Below, piece after piece: positions 25,408-47,094 of a DNA stretch of 64,000 bases (positions are counted from its first letter, which is position 1; every line of letters begins with the position of its first letter). A program made the position numbers and the translations under genes. This DNA is from an uncultured Chloroflexia bacterium (GTDB lineage: Bacteria; Chloroflexota; Limnocylindria; Limnocylindrales; CSP1-4): the NCBI GenBank assembly GCA_963768675.1, contig CAVYIV010000016.1, forward strand, positions 152,150-216,149, in the 5' to 3' direction. The notes beneath the pieces are model-generated. The model was not told where the DNA came from. It did no database searches and saw only the letters and a list, made by a program, of their open reading frames with translations.

Positions 25408-27709
<2,302 letters not shown>

Positions 27710-34294: not shown

Positions 34295-35785
34295 TCAGAG
34301 GCCGGCCCGGGCTTCGGCGCGGGCCACAATCTCGCGGAGCTCGGCTGCGGCGTCATCCGGGAGCGGCAGCGGGACCCGGTTGGCGGCAAGGATCGCGTCC
34401 GCTCGGTCGGCGGCGCGGGCGGCCAGCGCCCGGCCACCCGCGTTGGCCCATGCGCCCCGCGAGCGCCGATCGAACAGCGTCGGGTACCAGCGCGAGCGGT
34501 AGTGAGCCAGGGTATGGTCGGATTCGAGGAAGGAGCCCTCGACCCCGAGCTCGTCGACGAGGTCGAGCGCGAAGGCGTCGTCAGAGAGGTCGACCGGCGC
34601 GGTGGCGGCGCGGGTCCAGCCAACGATCTCGTCGCAGATCGCGAGCTGCGCCAGCGACCCGGCGAGCCCCGACTCGAGGTAGCCGCTGTCGTGCGTGACC
34701 TGACCCGCAGCGAGCGCGTCGAGCAGGATGGCCGCGGCGGCCTCGGCGGCGGCCTGGCCGTCGACGATCTTCGAATCCGCGCCCCCGCCGAGGCTGAACA
34801 TCGGGAACCCCAGGTGGTGGGCCAGCGCCTCCGCAGCACCCTTCGGGTCGGGGCCCACGTAGGGGTCGACCGTCGTGCGCAGATCAAGGGCATCGCCGCC
34901 AAAGCCGGGCACGACAACCGGCGCGCCCTCGCGCACGAGCTGCGCGATCACGATCCCAGCGAGCACGCCCGCGTGGTTGACTGCGAGCGTCCCGGCGAGC
35001 GTGACCGGCCCGGTCGTGCCGCCCGAGGTGACCGGGATCCAGAGCGCCGGGAGCCCGCGCTCGGCGAGGAAGAGGAGCCGGCCGACCGCGTCCTCGTCGA
35101 GGAGGAGCCCGCGCGTCACGTTGATGTACCAGCCGATCGTCGGGCGCGCCGCCTGCTCTCCGGCGCCGCCGGAGACGGCCGCGGCCATCGCGAGGACGTC
35201 CTTGAGCCCGTCGAGCTCGTACGTCACGACGATCAGCGGCTTCGTCGTCCCGGTCAGCATCGCGACGGCCTGGTGGCGATCGGCGACCCGCCCATCGACA
35301 TCCGAGGGCAGGAACATGGACATGGCGAAGGCCATGTTCGGGAGCGCATCGACCAGGGCAATGCCGGCGCGGACGTCGGCAAGCGTGGCGAGGCGCCGCT
35401 CGCCCGTCCGCCCGTCGACGATGTTGGGGCAGTCCGAGCCAGGCCCGAACCAGGCCGTCTCGCCTCCCCAGGCGATCGCCGGCCGGCCCGACCGGTCGTG
35501 CAGGGTGAGCGACTTCGGCGTGACGGCGAGCCCCTCGGCCACGAGCCGCGCCGGGATGCGCACGCGATCGGCCTCGTCGACGCGCGCGCCGGCGGCCGCC
35601 AGCAGGCGCCGCGCCTCCGGGTGGTCGACCCGGACGCCCGTTCGCTCGAGGATCGCGCAGGCCGCTGCCTGGATGCTCGCGCAGCCTTCCTCGCTCAGTC
35701 GCGTCCAGCGGCCGGCGCCGGGCGTGATTGCCGCCGGACCGGACCACTCGTCGGTGCGCACGCGAGCAGTATCCTTTATCGGCAT
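34295..35785 (-). CDS. MttB-family corrinoid methyltransferase, non-Pyl, paralog 3 (first gene of the operon)
   Basis: From MPIKDTARVRTDEWSG (ATG 35785): LSEEGCASIQAAACAILERTGVRV...GFGGDALDLRTTVDPYVGPDP...GSLAQLAICDEIVG, collinear with paralogs 1 and 2. The 81 codons upstream in ORF 34295..36028 run antisense into the integrase gene and are not coding. Confidence 0.85.
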   Translation of the reverse strand: MPIKDTARVRTDEWSGPAAITPGAGRWTRLSEEGCASIQAAACAILERTGVRVDHPEARRLLAAAGARVDEADRVRIPARLVAEGLAVTPKSLTLHDRSGRPAIAWGGETAWFGPGSDCPNIVDGRTGERRLATLADVRAGIALVDALPNMAFAMSMFLPSDVDGRVADRHQAVAMLTGTTKPLIVVTYELDGLKDVLAMAAAVSGGAGEQAARPTIGWYINVTRGLLLDEDAVGRLLFLAERGLPALWIPVTSGGTTGPVTLAGTLAVNHAGVLAGIVIAQLVREGAPVVVPGFGGDALDLRTTVDPYVGPDPKGAAEALAHHLGFPMFSLGGGADSKIVDGQAAAEAAAAILLDALAAGQVTHDSGYLESGLAGSLAQLAICDEIVGWTRAATAPVDLSDDAFALDLVDELGVEGSFLESDHTLAHYRSRWYPTLFDRRSRGAWANAGGRALAARAADRADAILAANRVPLPLPDDAAAELREIVARAEARAGL

Positions 35786-35837
35786 AGTACACTCACCGAA
35801 ACGAGGCTCACGAGGCCGAAGGATTGGAGCACCAGCC

Positions 35838-37208
35838 ATGATGCCACGCGCCGAGAACCACGGGCGGGCCGTCGAGTACCTACGCCGCAGCGTGGAGCGC
35901 GACAAGAGTGCCGATAAGGACCGCGGCGCCGGCCAGCGTGCCGCCAACGCCGCCCAGGCCGCCCGCGATGGCGTGATCATTGCGCGGTCCTTCGATGGTG
36001 ATTGGGGCATCTCCGGCGGCCGTGGCAAGCGCGAGTACCGGCACGCGATGGCCGAGCTAATCGACGCGATCCGCGCCGGCGAAGTCTCCCGCGTCTACTG
36101 CCACACGACCGACCGACTGGCCCGCGACGTCGAGTACGGCATGGCCCTCTGGAACGCCTGCAAGGACGCCGGCACGATCCTCCGCCCTGGCTCGCAGACG
36201 TTCGACCCCCAAGAGCCCGGATACCTAACCCTCTGGACCGTGCTACTCGCTCAGGCCGAAGAAGACCTCGACCGGATGACTAGGAAGAACCACGACCAGA
36301 TCGACTACGGGCGCGACCACGCCCTGACCTGTCCGCTCCCCGGCCGCCCGCACCTTGGCCGATGCCATCTCGTCGGATGCACCGACAAGACCCATTGCAG
36401 CCTAAGCCATGAGCGCGGCCGGAAGCCCTACGGCACCATGCCGGAGGAGGACGCCGCCGCCGTCGTGACCGCCTTCCTCGAAGCCGGCAGCCTGAACGGC
36501 GCTGCCCGCATCTTGAACGACCGCGGCGTACCAACCAAGACGCCCGGCGGACGCTGGTCGGCCCGGACAATCAAGGCCGTCGTGGAGCGGACCACCCCCG
36601 GAACGGTCCCCTACGGTGGCCGGAGAGGAGCGCGCACCGTCGCCCGGCGAGCCCTTGCCGGGCTCCTGCATTGTGGCGGGACCGTCGCGGGAGGCGCGAC
36701 GTGCGGCCACGTCCTGACCTCTAAGCCGCGCCCAGCTGCCACGCGACGCGACGGGACGCCGCGCCAAGCCATAACGCAGTGGATTTGCCCCGACGTCGTA
36801 AACACCACCACGCACAGCAGGCCCCAGGGGATCAGCGAGGCCCGGCTACTCCCGGCGATCATGGCCGAGAGCCTGCATTACCGGGCCCCGGCCGACGAGT
36901 TCACCGCGGCCGAGCGTACGAGCCAGCGCGACAAGCTCACAGCCGACCTTGCCCGCGTGCAACGACTCGCGATCTCTGGCGTACTGGACGAAGACCAGGC
37001 CGCGGCCGAGGCCAAGTCGATCCGGGCCCAGCTCGCCGCCCTCGACCACGCGGCAGCGCCAGTCGCGATACCCCAGGCGATCTCCTGGAGCGCCCCGGCC
37101 GCAGAGCTCAATGGATGGCTGCGTGCTCTGTGGCCCGAGGGTATCGAGCTCGACAGCAACCTCCTACCCGTCCGGTACTCATGGCTCCCGGGATGGCGCC
37201 GTGACTAG
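35838..37208 (+). CDS. large serine recombinase (integrase)
   Basis: N-terminal resolvase-type catalytic domain (AVEYLRRSVERD with candidate nucleophile Ser; TDRLARDVEYGMALW), a recombinase domain (GRKPYG...GSLNGAARILNDRGVPTKTPGGRWSARTIKAVV), a Cys-rich zinc-ribbon region (LLHCGG...TCGHVL...WICP) and a C-terminal coiled coil (RDKLTADLARVQRL...AAEAKSIRAQLAAL). Start ATG 35838 follows GGAG. Confidence 0.85.
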   Translation: MMPRAENHGRAVEYLRRSVERDKSADKDRGAGQRAANAAQAARDGVIIARSFDGDWGISGGRGKREYRHAMAELIDAIRAGEVSRVYCHTTDRLARDVEYGMALWNACKDAGTILRPGSQTFDPQEPGYLTLWTVLLAQAEEDLDRMTRKNHDQIDYGRDHALTCPLPGRPHLGRCHLVGCTDKTHCSLSHERGRKPYGTMPEEDAAAVVTAFLEAGSLNGAARILNDRGVPTKTPGGRWSARTIKAVVERTTPGTVPYGGRRGARTVARRALAGLLHCGGTVAGGATCGHVLTSKPRPAATRRDGTPRQAITQWICPDVVNTTTHSRPQGISEARLLPAIMAESLHYRAPADEFTAAERTSQRDKLTADLARVQRLAISGVLDEDQAAAEAKSIRAQLAALDHAAAPVAIPQAISWSAPAAELNGWLRALWPEGIELDSNLLPVRYSWLPGWRRD

Positions 37209-37361
37209 ACAGCGCCCGCGCCTCTGGATCAAACGGCCCGGCCCACCAGCCGGGCCGTTCCACGTCCCGGGATCGCACGCCCAGGGTAGGCAGAGACGAC
37301 GCCACGCGTAGCCGGAGCATACGCTACACGTATACCACCCCTAGGGTCACAGGCGCCGCAT

Positions 37362-37379
37362 ACCACAAGATGTTGTGGT
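37362..37379. promoter_or_regulatory. inverted repeat ACCACAA-GATG-TTGTGGT (operator-like) abutting the -35 box
   Basis: Perfect 7-bp arms, 8 nt upstream of the TTGACA at 37387. A second palindrome GCGTCAC-AG-GTGACGC lies at 37464-37479, and a GTCACAGG half-copy at 37346-37353. Confidence 0.35.
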
Positions 37380-37386
37380 TCCCGCA

Positions 37387-37415
37387 TTGACAGAGGCTTG
37401 CTCCCGCGGTACATT
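37387..37415 (+). promoter_or_regulatory. sigma-70/SigA-type promoter (TTGACA-17 nt-TACATT) for the rightward ORF chain
   Basis: Exact -35 consensus TTGACA (37387-37392), a 17-nt spacer and -10 TACATT (37410-37415). It lies in the 560-nt gap after the integrase gene in otherwise very G+C-rich DNA. Confidence 0.5.
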
Positions 37416-37557
37416 GGGCCCGCAGTAGGGAAGCCGGCAGCCGCGAAAGCCCGGTAGCTCCCAGCGTCACAGGTGACGCGCTCCGGGGCCGCGAGGCCGG
37501 AGCCACTTTCGCAGCCACGGCGCGACCCGCGCCGCCAGCTCGAAAGCAGGCGCACTC

Positions 37558-37761
37558 GTGACCTCCGCACCCGCAGAACCCACCTTCGGCGCCCACATGG
37601 GGCCCAGCGCGGCCGGCAGGATCGGCAGCGCAAAACGGTGGGGCCCTCCCCGCAGGATCAACCTCCGAGACATGGACGAGGCCGGCCGCCGGATCGTGCT
37701 AGCCAGCGTCGCCGCCGTCCGCGCAGAGCACGCGCGAGACACCGCCGCGGCCCAGAAGTAG
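37558..37761 (+). CDS. hypothetical small protein (weak call)
   Basis: 67-aa ORF downstream of the promoter and the only +strand ORF before the coupled chain. No clear SD; internal starts at 37600 and 37669 are possible. Confidence 0.25.
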   Translation: MTSAPAEPTFGAHMGPSAAGRIGSAKRWGPPRRINLRDMDEAGRRIVLASVAAVRAEHARDTAAAQK

Positions 37762-37770
37762 GCCGGCGCC

Positions 37771-38454
37771 GTGACCCGCGGAGAAGGCTTGCAGCGAGCC
37801 GATATCGACTCGTCTCTACTCACCGACCCGAAGCTACGCCGACTCCGGCGCCAGCTCCCGGACGCCGCCCAGATGGCCCGCGCCGTGGTCCTGTACCTCG
37901 CAGCCCTCCTCGACTCGTGGAGGACCGGAGAGCGAGTCTCCGCGGAGGACGCGGCCCCCGAATGGATCGAGGCCGACGCCGGCACGCTCGCCGCGCTCGT
38001 GGCCGCCGATCTCCTCGACAACGAGTACCGCGTCCCGCTCCACGCCTGGACCGCGTGGCACGACCCCGCCGTGCAGCGCATCTCCCAGAACCGCGAGAAG
38101 GCCCAGCTAGGAGGACTCCGCGCCCGCGGGGCCCGGACCCGCGACGAGGCCGAGGCTATGCGCGCAGCCCTCAACAGCCCAGCTATCAGCCCAGCTATCA
38201 GCGCCACTGATACACCAGCCAGCCAGCCAGCCACACCTACAGGGCCCAGCCAGCCGCTAGGAGTAGAGAACACTCCGCCGGCCGGAGCGAAGACACGAAC
38301 CGCGAAGCCCTCAGATGACGACGAACGACGCCGAGAGGCCGCGGCAGCCCACGCCTACGAGCTCGACGCGAAGTACCGGCCCAGCATCCCGACCGACCCG
38401 CGCCCCCTTCGGGACATCGTGGCCCAGCTCGCCCAGACAGGAGCGCCAGCATGA
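37771..38454 (+). CDS. hypothetical element protein (helical N-domain, low-complexity linker, acidic C-terminus)
   Basis: First ORF of a chain linked by ATGA/GTGA overlaps. The N-terminal part (DSSLLTDPKLRRLRRQLPDAAQMARAVVLYLAALLDSWRTGERV) faintly resembles phage replisome-organiser/DUF1376-type N-domains, but this is not established. It contains in-frame tandem repeats (PAIS x2). Confidence 0.55.
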   Translation: MTRGEGLQRADIDSSLLTDPKLRRLRRQLPDAAQMARAVVLYLAALLDSWRTGERVSAEDAAPEWIEADAGTLAALVAADLLDNEYRVPLHAWTAWHDPAVQRISQNREKAQLGGLRARGARTRDEAEAMRAALNSPAISPAISATDTPASQPATPTGPSQPLGVENTPPAGAKTRTAKPSDDDERRREAAAAHAYELDAKYRPSIPTDPRPLRDIVAQLAQTGAPA

Positions 38455-38666
38455 CCGACCCCGAAGACCTCGAACACCGACGCCGCCGGCACGAGCGGCT
38501 AGACGGTACGGGCAGCCCGACCCACAACGGCGCCGAGCTCCGCCGACGCGAACGCTTCGACGTGGCCCGCAGGATCGACCGGCGCGAGCTCAAACGCTGG
38601 ACGCTCGAACGCTTGCAGGCGATGGAGCGCCGCATTGACACCCTCGAACGGGAGGCCCGGCCGTGA
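38451..38666 (+). CDS. hypothetical small coiled-coil protein
   Basis: ATGA overlap with the upstream stop, with AGGAG 6 nt upstream. Arg/Glu-rich helical sequence. Confidence 0.5.
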   Translation: MTDPEDLEHRRRRHERLDGTGSPTHNGAELRRRERFDVARRIDRRELKRWTLERLQAMERRIDTLEREARP

Positions 38667-39256
38667 GCATGGCGGCCGGAGGCGCCCGGCCCGCGACCAT
38701 GCCCGAGCTCATGACCGCGCACACGCCGGAGCCGCCTAGCGCCGCCGATGCGCTCAGGAGAGCCAGCCGCCGGCACCGCGCCGCTATCGAGCGCCTAGAG
38801 CGTGCCCGGGATGCGACCACGGCCGCGCTCGCAGCGAACGAGGAGCCGACGCCGGGCAGCTCACGCCAAGCGAACAGCGCCCGTATCGCCCTCGACGCCG
38901 CGCTAGCCGAAGTCTCCGAAGCCAGCGCCGCGCTCGTGGAAGCATGGCGCCGCCGCGCCCAGGCCGGCCCAGAACAAGCCGGGCCCGAACAGCTCGCAGA
39001 GGCCCGCGAGCTCCAGGCCCAGGGTGCCCAGCTCGCCGGCCGGACCCGCGCCTACCTCCGAGCCATCCTCGAAGACGGGCGAGAGCTCGACGCCGAAGCG
39101 CGCGAATGGCGCGCGGCAGCGTCCGACTTCCAAGCCGCCAACGCGCTACGCATAGACCGGAGCGCGGTCGAACCCCTCGCAGACCTCGCAGCGTGGACGA
39201 CGCTAGCCGCCGCCGTCCGGTCCGCGCTGGACTACCTCCCGGAGCCGAGACGGTGA
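38663..39256 (+). CDS. hypothetical Ala/Glu-rich helical protein
   Basis: GTGA overlap with the upstream stop, with GGGAGG 7 nt upstream. Contains the in-frame repeat GPEQAGPEQ. Confidence 0.5.
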   Translation: MSMAAGGARPATMPELMTAHTPEPPSAADALRRASRRHRAAIERLERARDATTAALAANEEPTPGSSRQANSARIALDAALAEVSEASAALVEAWRRRAQAGPEQAGPEQLAEARELQAQGAQLAGRTRAYLRAILEDGRELDAEAREWRAAASDFQAANALRIDRSAVEPLADLAAWTTLAAAVRSALDYLPEPRR

Positions 39257-39588
39257 CCCACACAGCCGCTCACAGACTGCTAGAGCTCGCCCGGAAGCGA
39301 GCCTTGACCCACACGTCACCAACGCCGGCACCAACGCCGGCACCAACGCCACCAACGCCGCCGGCCCGTGAATACCTCGAACCGCGCGACCTCCCAAACG
39401 ACGACCTCTTGTGGCACTCATGGCGGGCCCAGGAGGCGACGAGACGACTACAGGAGGCCGCCGGGCAGACGCCGGACGCCGTGTATTCGCCGCCGGCCCG
39501 CCTATCGGCCGAGGAGCGCCGCGCCGCCCTCGAACGTCTCCGGGCAGCCAACCGCTACCCAGGCGACCACGAGGAGGCCGACGAATGA
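39253..39588 (+). CDS. hypothetical protein with TPAP repeat
   Basis: GTGA overlap with the upstream stop. 12-nt tandem repeat CACCAACGCCGG (39317-39362) encodes (TPAP)n. In frame within ORF 38944..39588. Confidence 0.5.
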   Translation: MTHTAAHRLLELARKRALTHTSPTPAPTPAPTPPTPPAREYLEPRDLPNDDLLWHSWRAQEATRRLQEAAGQTPDAVYSPPARLSAEERRAALERLRAANRYPGDHEEADE

Positions 39589-39950
39589 GAGCCGCCCACG
39601 TCGAGCCGCCCAGCCTCAGATGCGGACAGCTCCACGACCCACGCCTAGCCGCCGGCCGACTCTCGCAGACGTGCCCCCGGTGCGGGCGGTCGGAGGCCGC
39701 GCACTGGTATTGCTCCTGGTGCGTCCGGCCGATGACGCCGGCCAACTGGTACGAAGACAAGCGCGGCAGCGACGAGGCCGCCCGCCGTATGCCGAAGACC
39801 GCACCGGCCGACCCGCCGACCGAGCTACGCGAGCACTGGCCGCCGTCGTGGGGCCCGAAACCCCGCCAGAAGGCCGCCAGCGCCCCCCAGGAGGCCGCAG
39901 ACACCCCGGAACCCCTAAACGTGGCCCAGAACACCACCGCAGCAGCGTAG
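39585..39950 (+). CDS. hypothetical zinc-ribbon protein
   Basis: ATGA overlap with the upstream stop. CPRC-x9-CSWC four-Cys motif (TCPRCGRSEAAHWYCSWC). Confidence 0.5.
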   Translation: MRAAHVEPPSLRCGQLHDPRLAAGRLSQTCPRCGRSEAAHWYCSWCVRPMTPANWYEDKRGSDEAARRMPKTAPADPPTELREHWPPSWGPKPRQKAASAPQEAADTPEPLNVAQNTTAAA

Positions 39951-39964
39951 AGAGGATCGCCAGC

Positions 39965-40666
39965 ATGACAACGCTCTATGTCTTCAGGACCGCCGAGGCG
40001 CCGTCGCTCACCGTCGGCCCAGGACTCCGAGGCGACGACGCGACCACAGTGCAGTTTGTCCCGGGCCCGGACGGGGCAGGGTACGCCGAGATCAGCTCAG
40101 ACGACCCGAACCTAGCGCGCAAGCTCGCATGGATCACGAGCGCCCGGAACCTGTACCGGATCGAGGCAGTAGAGGCCGACTCCCGGCCGACGCCCGACGC
40201 CACCCTCTGCGACATGGAATGGTGCCCGGTCGGGATGGATCAACGGGCCGGCAGGGTCCCGCACGTGGCAGCGCCACATGATGCGCCACGCCCCGGGAGG
40301 CGACCTCCCCAAGCCCCGCGCGAACGTGACCACGAGCGGCCCGGAGTTTGCCCGATGAGCCCGCAGCCCTTCGACCGCCACCAACTAGGCCGCTACCTCG
40401 AAGCGAAGCTAGCCGGCCGTGAGCCCGAGCCGATCCCGGGCCCGGCCCCGACGCAGACGCTCGCAGACGTGGCGCGCAACGCCATCCGAGCCAGCGACCA
40501 GGAGGAGGGAACCCCCAACGACACCACATCCCGCCGCGCGTTCCTGTCTCTAGGAGTCTCCGGCCGGGAGGCTCTGGCCGACGAGAACAACCCCAACCAC
40601 GAGGCCGCAGCCGAGCTCTACGCGAAGTTGGCCGAGCTCGAACGCAGGAAGGACCGGAGCGCATGA
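39965..40666 (+). CDS. hypothetical protein
   Basis: ATG 39965 lies 14 nt after the previous stop, preceded by GAGAGGA (MTTLYVFRTAEAPSLTV...). 233 aa, the largest product of the chain, with no recognisable motif. Confidence 0.5.
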   Translation: MTTLYVFRTAEAPSLTVGPGLRGDDATTVQFVPGPDGAGYAEISSDDPNLARKLAWITSARNLYRIEAVEADSRPTPDATLCDMEWCPVGMDQRAGRVPHVAAPHDAPRPGRRPPQAPRERDHERPGVCPMSPQPFDRHQLGRYLEAKLAGREPEPIPGPAPTQTLADVARNAIRASDQEEGTPNDTTSRRAFLSLGVSGREALADENNPNHEAAAELYAKLAELERRKDRSA

Positions 40667-40950
40667 CCGACCACCGACCACCCAGCGAGGACGCTAAAGA
40701 GCTCCAGCGCATCCGGGAGGGTATCGCCAAGGCGAGGGAGGACGCCGCGGCCGGCCGACACCCCGCCCATTGGCAGCCGAAGTACAGCGAGCTCCGGCGC
40801 CACCTGTCCGCGGTCGGGGCCGCGGCCCCGATCCCGGACGACCCAACCACGAAGCCCAAGGACAAGCGACCCGGGCGATACCACCTCGACGCCTACAACG
40901 TCCCCTATTGGCAGGAAGACCCAGAACCGCAGGAAGGCGAGACACGATGA
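40663..40950 (+). CDS. hypothetical small protein
   Basis: ATGA overlap with the upstream stop, with GGAG 5 nt upstream. Confidence 0.5.
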   Translation: MTDHRPPSEDAKELQRIREGIAKAREDAAAGRHPAHWQPKYSELRRHLSAVGAAAPIPDDPTTKPKDKRPGRYHLDAYNVPYWQEDPEPQEGETR

Positions 40951-41297
40951 GCACCCCGAAGACCTCGAACAAGACCGACACGGGACACCCGGCCGCGGGG
41001 CACCCGTCCGACTTCGGCCCGGCCGACGCCAACACGACGGGCCCGGGATCATTCCCGACGCACCCGACGACCCTACCGGGCAGCGGAGGCCCGGCACATG
41101 AGCCGTTGAAGGTCAACAGCGGACCCGTCCCGGGAGGCTGGGGCACCTCGACCGGAAAGCGCGCGACCGGGAACCTCCCCGGACTCGACCACCCCTCGGA
41201 CGCAGGCGACCGCGTGACCCCGGCCGGACCAGCCGCCCAGCCGAACCCCAAGCTAGCCGGAGCCGGCGCCACGAAGAAGGCGCCGCCCAACAAGTAG
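40947..41297 (+). CDS. hypothetical Pro/Gly-rich protein
   Basis: ATGA overlap with the upstream stop. Low-complexity, probably disordered product. Confidence 0.45.
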   Translation: MSTPKTSNKTDTGHPAAGHPSDFGPADANTTGPGSFPTHPTTLPGSGGPAHEPLKVNSGPVPGGWGTSTGKRATGNLPGLDHPSDAGDRVTPAGPAAQPNPKLAGAGATKKAPPNK

Positions 41298-41413
41298 ACG
41301 CGGCAGGGCCGACCCGATCCCGGCCCACCGCGTCAAACGGGCCGGCCGGTGGACTTCCCCCAATCGGTCGGCCCGACACCTACGGCCGGCGCGATGTAGG
41401 CACGCCAGCCACA

Positions 41414-41443
41414 GGGGCCCGGACTGGTAGCGGTCCGGGCCCC
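41414..41443 (+). terminator. GC-rich hairpin between ORF blocks (attenuator/terminator-like, no U tract)
   Basis: GGGGCCCGGAC (41414-41424) pairs with GTCCGGGCCCC (41433-41443), giving an 11-bp perfect stem and an 8-nt loop. It is followed by AGGAG and ATG 41467. Confidence 0.35.
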
Positions 41444-41466
41444 GCACCTCGACAGGAGCCGACCAG

Positions 41467-41835
41467 ATGACCGACACGAACGGACCCGACCCGGGATACA
41501 CGAAGCCCGGCCGCCGCGGAATGGTGCACGATGCCGACCTCGACGTATGGATGGACCCAGCGACCGCGGACTACATGGAGAACGCCGCCGGCCGCGGCAT
41601 CCCGGGCCCGGCCCTGCCACGCTCGAAGCGCGGCCGCAGCGCGCCCAAGCCGAAGGCCACCGGCAGCGCCGCCAGGATCGCCGACCTCGCCCATCAGATC
41701 GCCGCGGAGGCCCAGGCGATGACCTCGAACGCGCCGACGGAGGCGCCGCCAGCGGTGGAGCGAGCCGAGGAGCAGACGCCTGTCCCAGCCGCGACCCCGC
41801 ACGAGCTCGCCGTAGCGGAGCAGGGGCAGCCGTGA
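41467..41835 (+). CDS. hypothetical protein
   Basis: AGGAG lies 8 nt upstream of the ATG. 122 aa with a basic middle (KRGRSAPKPK). Confidence 0.5.
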   Translation: MTDTNGPDPGYTKPGRRGMVHDADLDVWMDPATADYMENAAGRGIPGPALPRSKRGRSAPKPKATGSAARIADLAHQIAAEAQAMTSNAPTEAPPAVERAEEQTPVPAATPHELAVAEQGQP

Positions 41836-41974
41836 ACGAGCCGCAGAGCCGACCCTAGTGGTGCACCCACGCCTACGCAAGAGCCAGCGGGCCCTAGGCT
41901 CCGACCCCGGCCGGTAGGACACTGGATCCCCCAAGGAGGATACGCGCGACCCCGGACCACCCTTAGGCCCAGAA

Positions 41975-42193
41975 ATGGAGCAGTCCTTGCCCTACGCCGA
42001 CCCCGAGAAGAAACGCGCTTACGACCGCGCCCACCGCGAGCAGCACGCCGCAGTCCAGCGCACCTACTACGCCGCCCACCGCAAGGCCATCCTCCGACAG
42101 AAGGCGGCCTATGACTCCGCCCATTGTTCGGATCGGATGATCGCTCGCCTCAGGCTAGACGGCCAGCGAGCCCTAGAGCCCTTCACCGCGTGA
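41975..42193 (+). CDS. hypothetical small protein with YADPEKKRAY motif
   Basis: 72-aa ORF. Its N-terminus, PYADPEKKRAYDRAHREQHAAVQRTYYAAHRKA, is paralogous to the next ORF. Confidence 0.45.
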   Translation: MEQSLPYADPEKKRAYDRAHREQHAAVQRTYYAAHRKAILRQKAAYDSAHCSDRMIARLRLDGQRALEPFTA

Positions 42194-42534
42194 GTTACGC
42201 CGATCCCGAGCGACGCCGCGCTTACTGGCGCGCCTACCACGCAGCGCGCCCCAAGGAGCACGCCGCGGCCCAGCGCCGATACGCCGCCACGCCGAAAGGA
42301 CGAGAGGCCGCGGCCCGGTCCCACTGGAAGGAGTACAAGCAGAACCTACGCCAGCGCATCGCCGACGGCCCCGCCAAGATCGCCGCCCTAGAGGCCGAAC
42401 TAGACGAGCTCCTCGCAGTACCGCAGCGTGCCGATGCGTCGCCCAGCGTACCGGCCAGTACAAGGCCCGAGACAGACGATGGGGCAGACGCGCTCATCGT
42501 CGCAGTCTGGCGTCACGTCACCGCGAGGCCCTGA
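42190..42534 (+). CDS. hypothetical protein with YADPERRRAY motif (tandem paralog)
   Basis: GTGA overlap with the upstream stop (VSYADPERRRAYWRAYHAARPKEHAAAQRRYAATPKGREA...), followed by a coiled-coil segment. Confidence 0.45.
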   Translation: MSYADPERRRAYWRAYHAARPKEHAAAQRRYAATPKGREAAARSHWKEYKQNLRQRIADGPAKIAALEAELDELLAVPQRADASPSVPASTRPETDDGADALIVAVWRHVTARP

Positions 42535-42856
42535 AACAGCCCCGGGGGTAGGAAGGACACTCGCGCCGCGGCCAACTTCCGCGCCGTACAACCCGGCGGG
42601 GCCCGGTGGGTGTCGCACTTGGCGCGACGGCAGAGCTCGCCGGCCGAGCCGACCGGCACGCGACCGACCGCGCCAGATGATGCGGAGCCGTGCACTCCTG
42701 GGCGGTGCGGTGCGTTCTATTTGTGCTCAGTGGGACGAGTGTACCCATACCGAGCGATTAAGACTCGACTCCCACGAGCACGCGGCGCCGATCACGCGCA
42801 ACCGTCCGCGAGCGTGCACCGGGCGAGTCATGGGGCCGCACGCATTCCTCACAGAA

Positions 42857-43017
42857 CCTATCAAGCCGGTCCGATGCTGCCCGGCGCCTATCAGCTCGAC
42901 CAGCAAGAGCTAGCCCGCCGCTCTGATAGCACGAGGCGCCTGCCGGCGCCAAGAGGACCCTGCCGCGGTATCGCTGCTGATAGCCGGACCGTGGACACTG
43001 GGGCCGCCTTCTGATAC
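42857..43017. repeat. cluster of CTATCA(G) motifs in a 650-nt non-coding, lower-G+C region
   Basis: Forward copies are CCTATCA at 42857-42863 and 42887-42893. Inverted copies are TGATAG at 42924-42929 and 42978-42983, and TGATAC at 43012-43017. CTATCAG also occurs twice in tandem inside the gene at 38183-38201. Confidence 0.35.
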
Positions 43018-43187
43018 GTACAGCGTCTAGTCAACGTGGACTCTGCGGCACCGCTCACCCTACGTCAGGCGTAGGCCCACGATGTGCACCCAGGCGCCCG
43101 CACCGTGCAGCGCATGCCGCGGCAGGGACCCTCCTCGGCCGAGCAGAGGACCTTGGCGGGCAAGCATCCGCGCGTAGACTGCGGGGC

Positions 43188-43733
43188 ATGAGTTGGGTTG
43201 ACCGGCTCCTTCGTGCGGTTGGCATCGCACAAGGAGCATATTTCCTCTGGTTCACGATAGGTACATCGGTAGTTGTGGCCGGTGCAATGGCGGGCATCCT
43301 GGCAGCAATCAGCGGACTGCCTACCTGGTCCATCGGGGTGATTGCAGTGGGGCTGTTCTTTGTTGGACTCGGCGTGGTCAACGCACTTGCCGTCGCGATC
43401 TCAGGTCGGCTCGTACCGAGGTCGGAGCCCTATCACGCACTGACGCGAGTGATTGAGGATGGCCGCCGACTTCGTGAGCGCTTGAGCGCGCTGGACACAG
43501 ACCCCACCGAGCAGGAACAGGCCGAGTGGACGGTCCGTCTCAAGGACTGGAACGACGCTGCGGACGCAACGGTCGCGCGGGTCGCACCTTTCCGGCTTGC
43601 CGCGTTCAGGGTGGACCTCATCATCGCCGATTACCCCGGGCGCAGGCAGGGTCGCCCCAAACAGATCGCCCAATGGGAACTCGACGTGGAAACGACCCTA
43701 GAGCGTTTGCTCTATATCCGAGTAACGCTCTAG
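43188..43733 (+). CDS. hypothetical membrane protein (3 TM helices plus a cytoplasmic helical domain)
   Basis: 181-aa ORF with hydrophobic segments (AYFLWFTIGTSVVVAGAMAGILAAI, WSIGVIAVGLFFVGLGVVNALAVAI). Codon usage is visibly richer in A/T-ending codons than in the flanking genes. Confidence 0.6.
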   Translation: MSWVDRLLRAVGIAQGAYFLWFTIGTSVVVAGAMAGILAAISGLPTWSIGVIAVGLFFVGLGVVNALAVAISGRLVPRSEPYHALTRVIEDGRRLRERLSALDTDPTEQEQAEWTVRLKDWNDAADATVARVAPFRLAAFRVDLIIADYPGRRQGRPKQIAQWELDVETTLERLLYIRVTL

Positions 43734-43807
43734 TCAGCAGCCTGGCGAGCTCCGCGCCCGTCCAGATGTAATCGCCGCGGCTCCGACGCTAGACTCACCG
43801 CGCCCCG

Positions 43808-44272
43808 TCACTGCGGGACGTTCTGCTGGACCCAGTAGTTGATCGCGTCGCACTTGTCGCTGAACGCCTGGTTGGCGTCATAGATCGCCTTGTAGGCTGC
43901 GTCGAACTGGTCCATCGTCATCGGTCGAGCGAAGGCTGACGCGCCGGCGACGAGAGCCGAATGCAGCGCTGCGACCTCGGCGTCCGCGCCGGTCCCTGAG
44001 AAGCCCGCGACCAGCGCGGCGTCCTTCTTGGCCGCCGCCGCTGCCACCTTGCGCGCGATTGTCACGTCGCCCAGGGTCGAGAAGTAGAGCTGCTCGGCGG
44101 CGGGCGCGTCGGTCCCGAAGTTGTAGATGCTGGCGAGCGCGCAGGCGTCAGCCTGCGCCTTCGTGTAAGTCGGCGTGGGGGCCGCAGGCGTCGCCGCCGC
44201 CCCGCCGCCGGAGCACCCGGCAAGGGCCAACACCGCTGCCATGACCCCGCCGGTAAAGCCGCGTGTAAGCAT
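43808..44272 (-). CDS. hypothetical lipoprotein
   Basis: MLTRGFTGGVMAAVLALAGCSGG is a lipobox (LAGC) signal peptide, followed by an Ala-rich helical mature domain ending CDAINYWVQQNVPQ. ORF 43808..44320 offers an upstream TTG start, but ATG 44272 fits the signal peptide. Confidence 0.6.
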   Translation of the reverse strand: MLTRGFTGGVMAAVLALAGCSGGGAAATPAAPTPTYTKAQADACALASIYNFGTDAPAAEQLYFSTLGDVTIARKVAAAAAKKDAALVAGFSGTGADAEVAALHSALVAGASAFARPMTMDQFDAAYKAIYDANQAFSDKCDAINYWVQQNVPQ

Positions 44273-45135
44273 CGCCGCCGCCTTCTTGACTCCCCCCGCC
44301 ACTCTGAACCTCGCGCCCAACGACCGCTGACTCGCCCGATGGCGTCGCTCGGGATGCCGATCTCGGCTAGGAACTCGGGCTCCTGCACAACCGGGACCCC
44401 GTACTCCTTCGCCCGTTGGAGGTTGCCGGTGACCTCCTCCGGGTCCGCGACGATGAGCGCGTGCGTCTTCTTGGTGAGGCGAGGGAGCACGTCACATTGG
44501 GCCCACCGGGCGAGCATCACCTGGGCGTGCCGGTCAAGTGGGACCCCGTAAACGGTGGTTCCCATCTCGCCCGTGAACGCGATCATCTTCCCGACCCACG
44601 GGTGGGCAGCGATTGGGGCCCGGTCGTCCGTGACCATCTCCGCGGCGCATTCGCCGGGCGTGCCGAGATGCAGGACCACGCCGACCCCTTCGCGCTCTGG
44701 GACTCGGGCCGCGTCGCAAGCTACCGCCGTTGTCATATCCGACTTGGAAGCCGCAAGGTGCCGGAATAGGGGCTGGTACGCGATTGCGTCATAGCGCGAC
44801 AGGTAGCCCGCCTGCGTCCATGCGCCGCCCGCCCACAGGTGCACGCCTATCGCGTTCGGGTCGTACTGGTTCGTCGGTTCCGGGATCAGCATCGCCTTGA
44901 AGAACCCGACGGGCGGCGGCGGGAGTCCCGGAGGTAGGTCATCGGGGCCCGGGGGACGCGCGGCTCGTAAGTTCTCCTGCCTATAGAACTCGCCGACGAC
45001 CTGCACGGCTGCGTCGTCGCGCATCCCTGTGAAGGCCGTGAAGTGCAGCCTGATCTCGTGGATGCCGGTATCGCGGCCACGCTGCCCGCTTGGCGACGCC
45101 GTCGGGGTGCCTCGCAGTCGTCGCAGGAAGCCCAT
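44062..45135 (-). CDS. HIRAN domain - BRCT domain protein (3' end uncertain)
   Basis: ATG 45135 follows GGAGGG. HIRAN signature VVGEFYRQENL...IPEPTNQYDPNAIGVHL...AGYLSRYDAIAYQPLF. BRCT-like C-terminal domain GKMIAFTGEMG...LTKKTHALIVADPEEVTGNLQRAKEYGVPVVQEPEFL. The last ~90 codons are Arg-rich, overlap the lipoprotein gene and are probably not real. Confidence 0.65.
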   Translation of the reverse strand: MGFLRRLRGTPTASPSGQRGRDTGIHEIRLHFTAFTGMRDDAAVQVVGEFYRQENLRAARPPGPDDLPPGLPPPPVGFFKAMLIPEPTNQYDPNAIGVHLWAGGAWTQAGYLSRYDAIAYQPLFRHLAASKSDMTTAVACDAARVPEREGVGVVLHLGTPGECAAEMVTDDRAPIAAHPWVGKMIAFTGEMGTTVYGVPLDRHAQVMLARWAQCDVLPRLTKKTHALIVADPEEVTGNLQRAKEYGVPVVQEPEFLAEIGIPSDAIGRVSGRWARGSEWRGESRRRRRCLHAALPAGSWQRCWPLPGAPAAGRRRRLRPPRRLTRRRRLTPARSPASTTSGPTRPPPSSSTSRPWAT

Positions 45136-45405
45136 CGCCACACCCTCCGAGCCATAAGCGCGAGTGCAGGCTAGGCTCCTATTCTGCGCCTGCCGGCGCC
45201 GTCCCATGCCTCCCAGGAGCCAGCAGGAAGCCCCAGCACGAGCGAGCGCGCGGGCCGATGGTATCCGCGTGCTGAATGGCCCTGTCTTCGGGACTACTTG
45301 GTCCTACACGTCGGGCATCGGACCTCCCTCGGCGCGAGGGTGCCGGGCCTCCCAACATGTCCGCCAGTGCGAAATGGCCCGTTGCTGCGGGCGGCGCAAC
45401 GAATA

Positions 45406-45438
45406 GCGAGGCCCCGGCCGTCCCGGCCGGGGCCTCGC
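45406..45438 (-). terminator. groEL terminator hairpin
   Basis: GCGAGGCCCCGGCC (45406-45419) pairs with GGCCGGGGCCTCGC (45425-45438), giving a 14-bp perfect stem and a 5-nt loop 22 nt after the groEL stop. On the minus strand it is followed by UAUUCGUU. Confidence 0.6.

Positions 45439-45460: not shown

Positions 45461-47094
<1,634 letters not shown>

Follow-up and report, generated by a model that had tools for sequence, protein, structure and literature searches.

What does a protein do that joins a HIRAN domain to a BRCT domain and carries no enzyme? The question is raised by a 64,000-nucleotide stretch of contig CAVYIV010000016.1 from an uncultured Chloroflexia bacterium (hereafter, the window), in which three genes lie at the right end of an integrative element: gene A (43188-43733, plus strand), encoding a membrane protein of 181 residues; gene B (43808-44302, minus strand), encoding a lipoprotein of 164 residues; and gene C (44305-45135, minus strand), encoding the HIRAN-BRCT protein. 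A reading of the DNA made without database searches (the sequence-only reading) had proposed that the three work together as one module. All three open reading frames (ORFs) were recovered where that reading had placed them, each with a coherent family of homologs. Gene C encodes a member of an uncharacterized but sizeable family built from known domains, for which we favor, with reservations, a role in binding DNA ends.

Domains and extent of the HIRAN-BRCT protein

Homologs of C (n = 117 at E ≤ 1e-3; mostly 54-71% identical and 263-281 residues long) came nearly all from metagenomes, and the matches in genomes were to metagenome-assembled genomes (MAGs) of Chloroflexia or Chloroflexota. The HIRAN domain (residues ~30-156; 44668-45048, minus strand) was assigned from its N-x-Y-D-x-N-A and G-Y-L motifs together with Pfam, PDB profile, and Foldseek matches, and the BRCT domain (residues ~179-258; 44362-44601, minus strand), of the LigA/RFC1/PDC-S48 type, from PADLOC, Foldseek, and conservation. 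Pfam HIRAN (PF08797) matched 83 of 90 family members (best match, 7.4e-12), and Pfam BRCT (PF00533) matched 42 of the 90 (best match, 2.1e-6). When compared with PDB sequences, the family profile matched lp_0118 (3.7e-5), the HLTF HIRAN domain (7e-4), and the LigA BRCT domain (2e-3).

An AlphaFold (AF2) model of C, made with a 90-sequence alignment, had a predicted local distance difference test score (pLDDT) of 92.3 and a predicted template modeling score of 0.88, with pLDDT values of >90 across residues 30 to 156. The model contains two folded domains only, packed as one compact unit: residues 1 to 28 are disordered and are followed by HIRAN (~30-156), a helix (160-169), BRCT (~179-258), and a conserved C-terminal tail. 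Foldseek matched the HIRAN part to 3k2y, 6kcs, 4xzg, and 4s0n (probability, 0.97-1.0; HLTF HIRAN, 0.99) and the BRCT part to the domains of RFC1 (2ebu, TMt 0.61; 2k7f; 8dr3), LigA (9a6z_B), and TopBP1/XRCC1 (probability, ~1.0); the model gave no match to a nuclease or to a third fold. The Pfam matches of the family, the model, and the fold matches thus bear out the sequence-only reading in its claim that HIRAN and BRCT are combined here with no catalytic domain. They give no support to its suggestion that a nuclease fold might be hidden in the middle of the protein (residues ~150-200), a region that is made up of the last HIRAN strands (135-156), the helix at 160-169, and the linker.

The predicted pockets are conserved in both domains. 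In the HIRAN domain, PTNQYDPNAI of C aligns with PNNPYDKNAI of HLTF; N89 and A95 are invariant, and D92, N94, G110, Y111, and L112 are conserved in at least 90% of the family. The phosphate-pocket motif of the BRCT domain (FTG, with T188 and G189; R202; and TKKT at 220-223) is invariant or nearly so, and its residues are presumably the counterparts of T415, G416, R423, and K458 of RFC1. The disordered N-terminal segment carries a motif of its own, M-[GSA]-F-L-[RK]-R-L-x-G (residues 1 to 10; 45106-45135), which is conserved across the HIRAN-BRCT family, numerous HIRAN-only proteins, and P0186, a HIRAN-DEDDh-BRCT protein described below; this motif may be a docking or membrane-binding peptide.

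The listed ORF of gene C spans 44062-45207 on the minus strand (381 residues). Since all homologs begin with MGFLRRL, the start lies at 45135, as the sequence-only reading had assumed. The homologs all end in ...GRVxxRWAR[G/R/L] followed by TGA or TAG, and at this point the window reads GGT TCA GAG and then 81 further codons across gene B. A single base removes the stop: position 44306 is G on the plus strand of the window, which gives TCA on the minus strand (44305-44307), while a short-read contig has C there, which gives TGA. That contig comes from public run X1, a freshwater-sediment metagenome from the same study that holds 13% of the region's words. It is 151 nucleotides (nt) long and covers 44284-44434 with a single difference, which was located by aligning the contig to truncated stretches of the window; its soft-clipped end reads TCTTGACTCCCCCCGCCACTCTC where the window reads ...CTCTG, placing C at 44306. 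Judging from the ends of its homologs and from this contig, the C protein is 273 residues long, with coding sequence from 45135 to 44308 and its proper stop codon, TGA, at 44307-44305. The TCA of the window is either a strain variant or an error of one base in the consensus.

What follows the lost stop (44062-44304, minus strand) appears to be a spurious Arg-rich read-through tail overlapping gene B. It is absent from all homologs, and its G+C contents at the first, second, and third codon positions (0.63, 0.88, and 0.65) form a noncoding pattern. The Arg-rich overlap of about 270 nt and the unclear stop that the sequence-only reading had described are due to base 44306 and not to the indel that it suspected. 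The run that it had named as the indel site, G6 at 44293-44298, was placed one base off (the plus strand has C6 at 44292-44297). The run is identical in the short-read contig, and a shift of +1 or -1 there gives no nearby stop. The practical lesson is that a single base can create what looks like a long overlap between genes in a high-G+C MAG and that public short reads could resolve it.

Relatives and genomic contexts of the family

A family-profile search of a representative library of 1.84 billion proteins gave 5229 matches at E ≤ 1e-3, of which 1275 had E ≤ 1e-10 and 56 had E ≤ 1e-30. Dozens of clusters in this library (at 50% identity) contain the full-length two-domain protein, and most of them come from uncultured soil and sediment Chloroflexota. 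Some of the database entries are named NAD-dependent DNA ligase, owing to the BRCT domain.

The sole match of C in a defense-system profile search with PADLOC was to the C terminus of PDC-S48 (2.6e-10; profile positions 330 to 403 of 411). PDC-S48 is a PADLOC candidate system and a prediction only. The BRCT domain of C is of the same subtype and is 35-43% identical to the BRCT domains of full-length PDC-S48 members, which, like C, are single-gene proteins found in variable regions. They differ from C in combining an RNase_T (DEDDh) exonuclease with the C-terminal BRCT domain, whereas C has no exonuclease and carries HIRAN instead. In a scan of selected library matches, PDC-S48 members had RNase_T together with a full-length match to the profile, and NCBIfam has a related model, PRK06063 ("DEDDh family exonuclease"). 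Because the exonuclease domain is absent from its sequence, C is not a member of PDC-S48. Literature searches returned nothing on a HIRAN-BRCT protein and no relevant papers on PDC-S48 or on BRCT domains in connection with anti-phage activity. To our knowledge, bacterial BRCT domains outside LigA have barely been studied.

Another relative in the library, the uncharacterized 657-residue protein P0186, has a HIRAN domain, a DEDDh exonuclease, and a BRCT domain, the outer two in the same order as in C. Its N terminus (MAFLRRLLGG) resembles that of C (MGFLRRLRG), and the HIRAN and BRCT domains are 27% and 33% identical, respectively. P0186 differs in an insert of ~400 residues that contains a Zn-ribbon-like segment and the exonuclease, whereas C joins its two domains by a helix and linker of ~20 residues. 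From sequence comparison, the C family looks like the targeting modules of PDC-S48- and P0186-type proteins without the enzyme. We found no DEDDh exonuclease encoded in trans near C homologs.

Each domain also has better-known relatives. The HIRAN domain shares its fold and the N-x-Y-D-x-N-A motif with HLTF/Rad5, with the HIRAN-like 3′-terminus pocket of PriA, and with lp_0118 (PDB 3k2y), a stand-alone bacterial HIRAN protein. The HIRAN domain of HLTF captures free 3′-OH DNA ends (PMC8262856, citing Kile 2015 and Hishiki 2020), and prokaryotic HIRAN proteins have been described as uncharacterized (PMC11090510). Unlike HLTF and Rad5, C has no SNF2 or helicase motor, and its HIRAN domain has a Pro-rich loop insertion (~60-78). 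Among the selected library matches scanned, HIRAN relatives of C were fused to SngA of Shango, and HIRAN relatives also matched PDC-M03B. For the BRCT domain, RFC1 and LigA gave the best structural matches and share T-G...R...(S/T)-K-K-T with C; the differences are that the BRCT domain of C is joined to HIRAN rather than to a clamp loader or ligase and that it has an extra conserved tail, IGIPxxxIGRVxxRWARG. The BRCT domains of RFC1 and LigA bind DNA, that of RFC1 at 5′-phosphorylated recessed ends.

Genomic contexts were surveyed in DNA fetched up to 10 kb on each side of the homologs (less on short contigs). Loci with full-length C homologs comprised seven genome loci and L061 to L073, and neighbors were clustered for 11 loci plus the window. 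At L067 to L070, the homolog is flanked by a large serine recombinase and a tyrosine integrase. At L072, a type I HsdR gene (PADLOC E = 0) ends 49 nt upstream of the homolog, which is followed by DUF6308, Mrr, UDG, and helix-turn-helix (HTH)/ImmA genes, while at L061 the homolog appears to share an operon with small ORFs and a 1,025-residue Ppl/AriA/LmuB-like ATPase, with NERD and a PIN-HTH pair alongside. The 35-kb IMG/VR phage contig L159, which also encodes a tape-measure protein, an exonuclease, a methyltransferase, and HTH regulators, carries a full-length homolog that is 35% identical to C; this gene is on the strand opposite to the flanking modules and in a local dip in G+C content, a moron-like position. 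The distribution of the family is patchy, and the position of the gene differs between related MAGs; GenBank phages and PLSDB plasmids contained no C homolog. The general idea of the sequence-only reading, a DNA-end-binding protein tied to mobile elements or defense, is in keeping with these integrase, type I restriction enzyme, ATPase, and prophage neighbors and with a BRCT domain of the PDC-S48 subtype.

The further claim of that reading, that C is a DNA-end sensor working with the two envelope proteins in one defense or superinfection-exclusion module, did not survive the same survey. By tblastn, no relative of A, B, or groEL was found in the DNA fetched around full-length C homologs. None of the other trio members was found in the DNA fetched at 11 C-homolog, 3 A-homolog, and 2 B-homolog loci, and the neighbors of the homologs had no counterparts in the window. 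Clustering of the ORFs within 5 kb of C, at the 11 loci and the window, gave no common partner, with one exception, a Schlafen (SLFN) fragment. In three Chloroflexia MAGs (L001, 8246-8641; L002, 9414-10004; L007, 9585-10004), an ORF lies upstream of the HIRAN-BRCT gene and abuts or overlaps its start; within the Schlafen group 3 helicase domain, the match of this ORF (3.5e-21) is confined to the C-terminal third.

Homologs of each of the three genes thus occur without the other two, among them a copy of B that is 85% identical and has no C beside it, and the co-occurrence expected of a functional unit was not seen, an outcome that the sequence-only reading had itself named as grounds for refutation. 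Third-position G+C content (GC3) also separates A (0.68) from B (0.87) and C (0.82), which argues for separate acquisition. A single module would fit the location of A, B, and C at the end of the insertion, the mobile contexts in which all three families are found elsewhere, and the translational coupling of C and B in the window, where the GTG start of B (44302) comes 2 nt after the stop of C (TGA-GA-GTG). Given this spacing, B and C are probably cotranscribed in the window, and the arrangement occurs in the window only. We consider such a module very unlikely; the neighborhoods indicate that A and B are cargo separate from C and that the three are independent accessory genes. The lower G+C content that the sequence-only reading ascribed to the trio holds for A, a clear outlier whose GC3 is below that of every other gene of the element. 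B and C are low only in comparison with the chromosome (flanking core genes, including mttB, a B12-binding protein gene, groEL, and groES, have GC3 values of 0.89-0.955 in a window of 71% G+C) and not in comparison with the rest of the element (other ORFs, 0.74-0.89).

Possible roles of the protein

The reading toward which we lean is that C is a non-catalytic binder of DNA 3′-OH/5′-phosphate ends that acts in conflicts among mobile elements, phages, and hosts. The HIRAN pocket would take a free DNA 3′-OH end, the BRCT phosphate pocket (T-G...R...K-K) would take the neighboring 5′-phosphate or duplex, and the two pockets together would clamp a nick, gap, or recessed end. Action would be by occupancy: the end would be blocked or marked against exonucleases, polymerases, or ligase, and no DNA would be cut. 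The role could be the exclusion of incoming DNA or the protection of the element's own ends. A conflict role seems the most likely because the family occurs as lone cargo in prophages, integrative elements, and defense islands and because its closest relatives in architecture are DEDDh-exonuclease-BRCT (PDC-S48) and HIRAN-DEDDh-BRCT proteins.

Several points weigh against this reading. The C protein of the window by itself falls below the Pfam gathering thresholds for both domains (19.5 versus 24.7 bits for HIRAN and 19.9 versus 21.3 bits for BRCT). BRCT domains can bind phosphoproteins rather than DNA. About four of nine annotated contexts have only hypothetical or metabolic neighbors, and the direction of action could be either defense or counter-defense. 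As to the protein itself, the TGA allele rests on one contig with a depth of 2.8 and may stem from a sister strain, since the contigs of run X1 show 2 mismatches to the window over 463 bases.

Other roles are conceivable. C might be a counter-defense decoy, a nuclease-less derivative of HIRAN-DEDDh-BRCT or PDC-S48-type exonucleases that occupies the DNA ends these enzymes target and so shields phage or element DNA from them or from RecBCD/AddAB-like enzymes. It has its N-terminal motif, HIRAN domain, and BRCT subtype in common with P0186 and its BRCT domain in common with PDC-S48, it is carried by a prophage (L159) and by the integrase-bearing element here, and no nuclease is encoded nearby. 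Yet some homologs stand within chromosomal defense-type clusters (after HsdR or beside the Ppl/AriA-like ATPase), where a host-side role fits equally, and PDC-S48 is itself only a candidate system; we regard the decoy as possible but rather improbable. It is unlikelier still that C is a housekeeping accessory of repair, a nick- or gap-binding helper of host repair or ligation (for instance, one that recruits LigA or a polymerase) that lies beside the element by chance. Its domains are classic repair modules, some entries bear the ligase name, and some contexts have ordinary neighbors only (DinB-family, GNAT, and glyoxalase genes), but the gene lies within an insertion that six related contigs lack, the family is patchily distributed, variable in position between related MAGs, and present in a prophage, and no synteny with repair genes was seen at the 11 loci and the window.

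Phosphopeptide binding, of which BRCT domains are generally known to be capable, would suit yet another role, that of a HipN-like antitoxin or regulator in which the HIRAN protein would regulate a kinase or another toxin and the BRCT domain would read a phosphorylated partner. The putative antitoxin HipN and the HipL kinases contain HIRAN domains (PMC8262856), as do HipA-HIRAN-diDNase clusters (PMC11706625), and HipN/HipL and PDC-M03B resemble C in having HIRAN in predicted phage-defense contexts (PMC8262856, PMC11706625). C differs in having no HipS-like domain and no HipA-type kinase partner: none was found beside it in the annotated neighborhoods or the window scans, and the 11 loci and the window had no partner in common. 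We find this role scarcely credible.

Returning to end binding, a broader proposal can be made only tentatively, and we consider it rather improbable: the HIRAN-BRCT proteins may form a new class of DNA-end caps that lack enzymatic activity and arose when HIRAN-DEDDh-BRCT or PDC-S48-type exonucleases lost their nuclease. In Chloroflexota and Actinomycetota, temperate phages and integrative elements might carry them to protect intermediates of their replication or integration against end-directed immune nucleases, an anti-defense strategy based on substrate mimicry of the targeting modules of the immune protein, or to sequester the ends of superinfecting DNA. HIRAN-BRCT joins two end-recognition modules with no enzyme at all, and its sister architecture has a DEDDh exonuclease between the same modules. 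Such a pair, with and without the nuclease, offers a testable system for DNA-end recognition by immune or mobile-element proteins and for sensor versus decoy functions of the nuclease-less copies. The importance of the family would rise if an end-capping or decoy function proved true.

The integrative element and neighboring genes

The element was delimited by comparison with empty sites. The neighboring MttB protein was used to scan metagenome contigs, and in six of these (L080, L081, L082, L086, L087, and L120) groEL is directly followed by mttB, the MttB proteins being 83-89% identical in amino acid sequence to that of the window. Window positions 45313-45387 match these contigs over 72-76 nt, and there the match is continuous with the 5′ end of mttB; the window therefore carries an insertion of ~9.5 kb (~35786-45315; borders within about ±15 nt). 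The insertion point is the mttB start codon or just inside it. A large serine recombinase (integrase) gene (35841-37208, plus strand; Pfam Resolvase, 6.5e-10, and Recombinase, 2.6e-3; PHROG integrase, 1e-18) lies 56 nt from the left junction and is followed by a backbone of small ORFs (37558-42534, plus strand) with coding-like GC3 values of 0.74-0.89, which had no family match in Pfam or PHROG. Genes A, B, and C complete the contents at the right end, where the start of C is ~175 nt from the junction. Judged by this content and by the empty sites, the element is a serine-integrase insertion with cargo at its right end; the empty sites and the integrase at the left junction bear out the sequence-only reading on this point.

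The insertion has separated mttB from its native start. A remnant of the ribosome-binding site and ATG of mttB, GGAGGTCCGATGCCCGACGTGTAG, lies at 45304-45327 (minus strand; identified by alignment with the empty sites); the native GGAGG-ATG, at 45327-45316 at the right junction, is now 9.5 kb away and opens an ORF of 4 codons. At the left junction (35781-35785), mttB now stands behind a weaker, element-derived leader, GGTGAGTGTACT-ATG. The borders of the element have no direct repeats beyond an ATGCC common to both, and absence of direct repeats is expected for serine integrases. An IMG/VR search found no relative of the integrase, no tRNA gene that might serve as an integration target was found in the 64-kb window, and an Rfam scan of the element gave no match. 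Within the chain of small ORFs, a 60-nt direct repeat with 72% identity (42014-42073 and 42229-42288) encodes YADPE(K/R)(K/R)RAY...H...AAxQRxY in the overlapping ORFs 41975-42193 and 42124-42534.

Genes A and B had no match in PADLOC, Pfam, PHROGs, or NCBIfam. Gene A has eight homologs (55-64% identity, full length), which adjoin tyrosine integrases, transposases, and an RHS toxin and stand without B or C. The A protein has a single hydrophobic stretch of ~60 residues and a soluble C-terminal domain of ~105 residues. The sequence-only reading had called it a protein with three transmembrane (TM) segments; homologs and hydropathy agree with a membrane protein, and the hydropathy fits a hairpin of two TM segments better than three, although a third is possible.

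Gene B was listed as an ORF at 43808-44320 (minus strand) and starts at the GTG at 44302, with an alternative ATG at 44272. Its signal peptide ends in the lipobox LAGC; the stretch MAAVLALAGCSGG is kept in 6 of 8 homologs in the alignment, which upholds the call of a lipoprotein. The mature domain is a predicted four-helix bundle (AF2 pLDDT, 81), and a fold search with this model gave no PDB match, only generic helical bundles at E > 0.7. Of the eight homologs, one adjoins a GNAT gene and another a fusion of an N6/N4 methyltransferase and Mrr, in both cases without C. In L078, which holds the closest homolog (85% identity), the gene upstream differs from that in the window, and the gene 3′ of the homolog (943-2334) encodes the fused N6/N4 DNA methyltransferase and Mrr-like restriction endonuclease, a defense-type neighbor.

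Outside the element, groEL (45461-47094, minus strand) is split over three frames by two single-base insertions of C, at 47043 (cagCggc) and ~46195 (tcgCgag). A related contig of run X2 is one base shorter at 47044, groES downstream is intact, and reads aligned to groEL for the second insertion drew in many cross-mapping contigs from other organisms. These frame breaks reflect either assembly error or a decaying groEL paralog, and the insertions together with the X2 contig make errors in the source assembly plausible. Just after groEL, a perfect 15-bp hairpin, rich in G+C and with a T-rich tract behind it (45406-45438, minus strand), is the chromosomal groEL terminator. Finally, a second BRCT-coding stretch (25435-25644, minus strand) is 60% identical to the C-terminal BRCT domain of the library protein P0228 and lies just below a 707-residue ORF (25589-27709, minus strand); the coordinates suggest another frame break, and the stretch is possibly the C terminus of the host NAD-dependent ligase.

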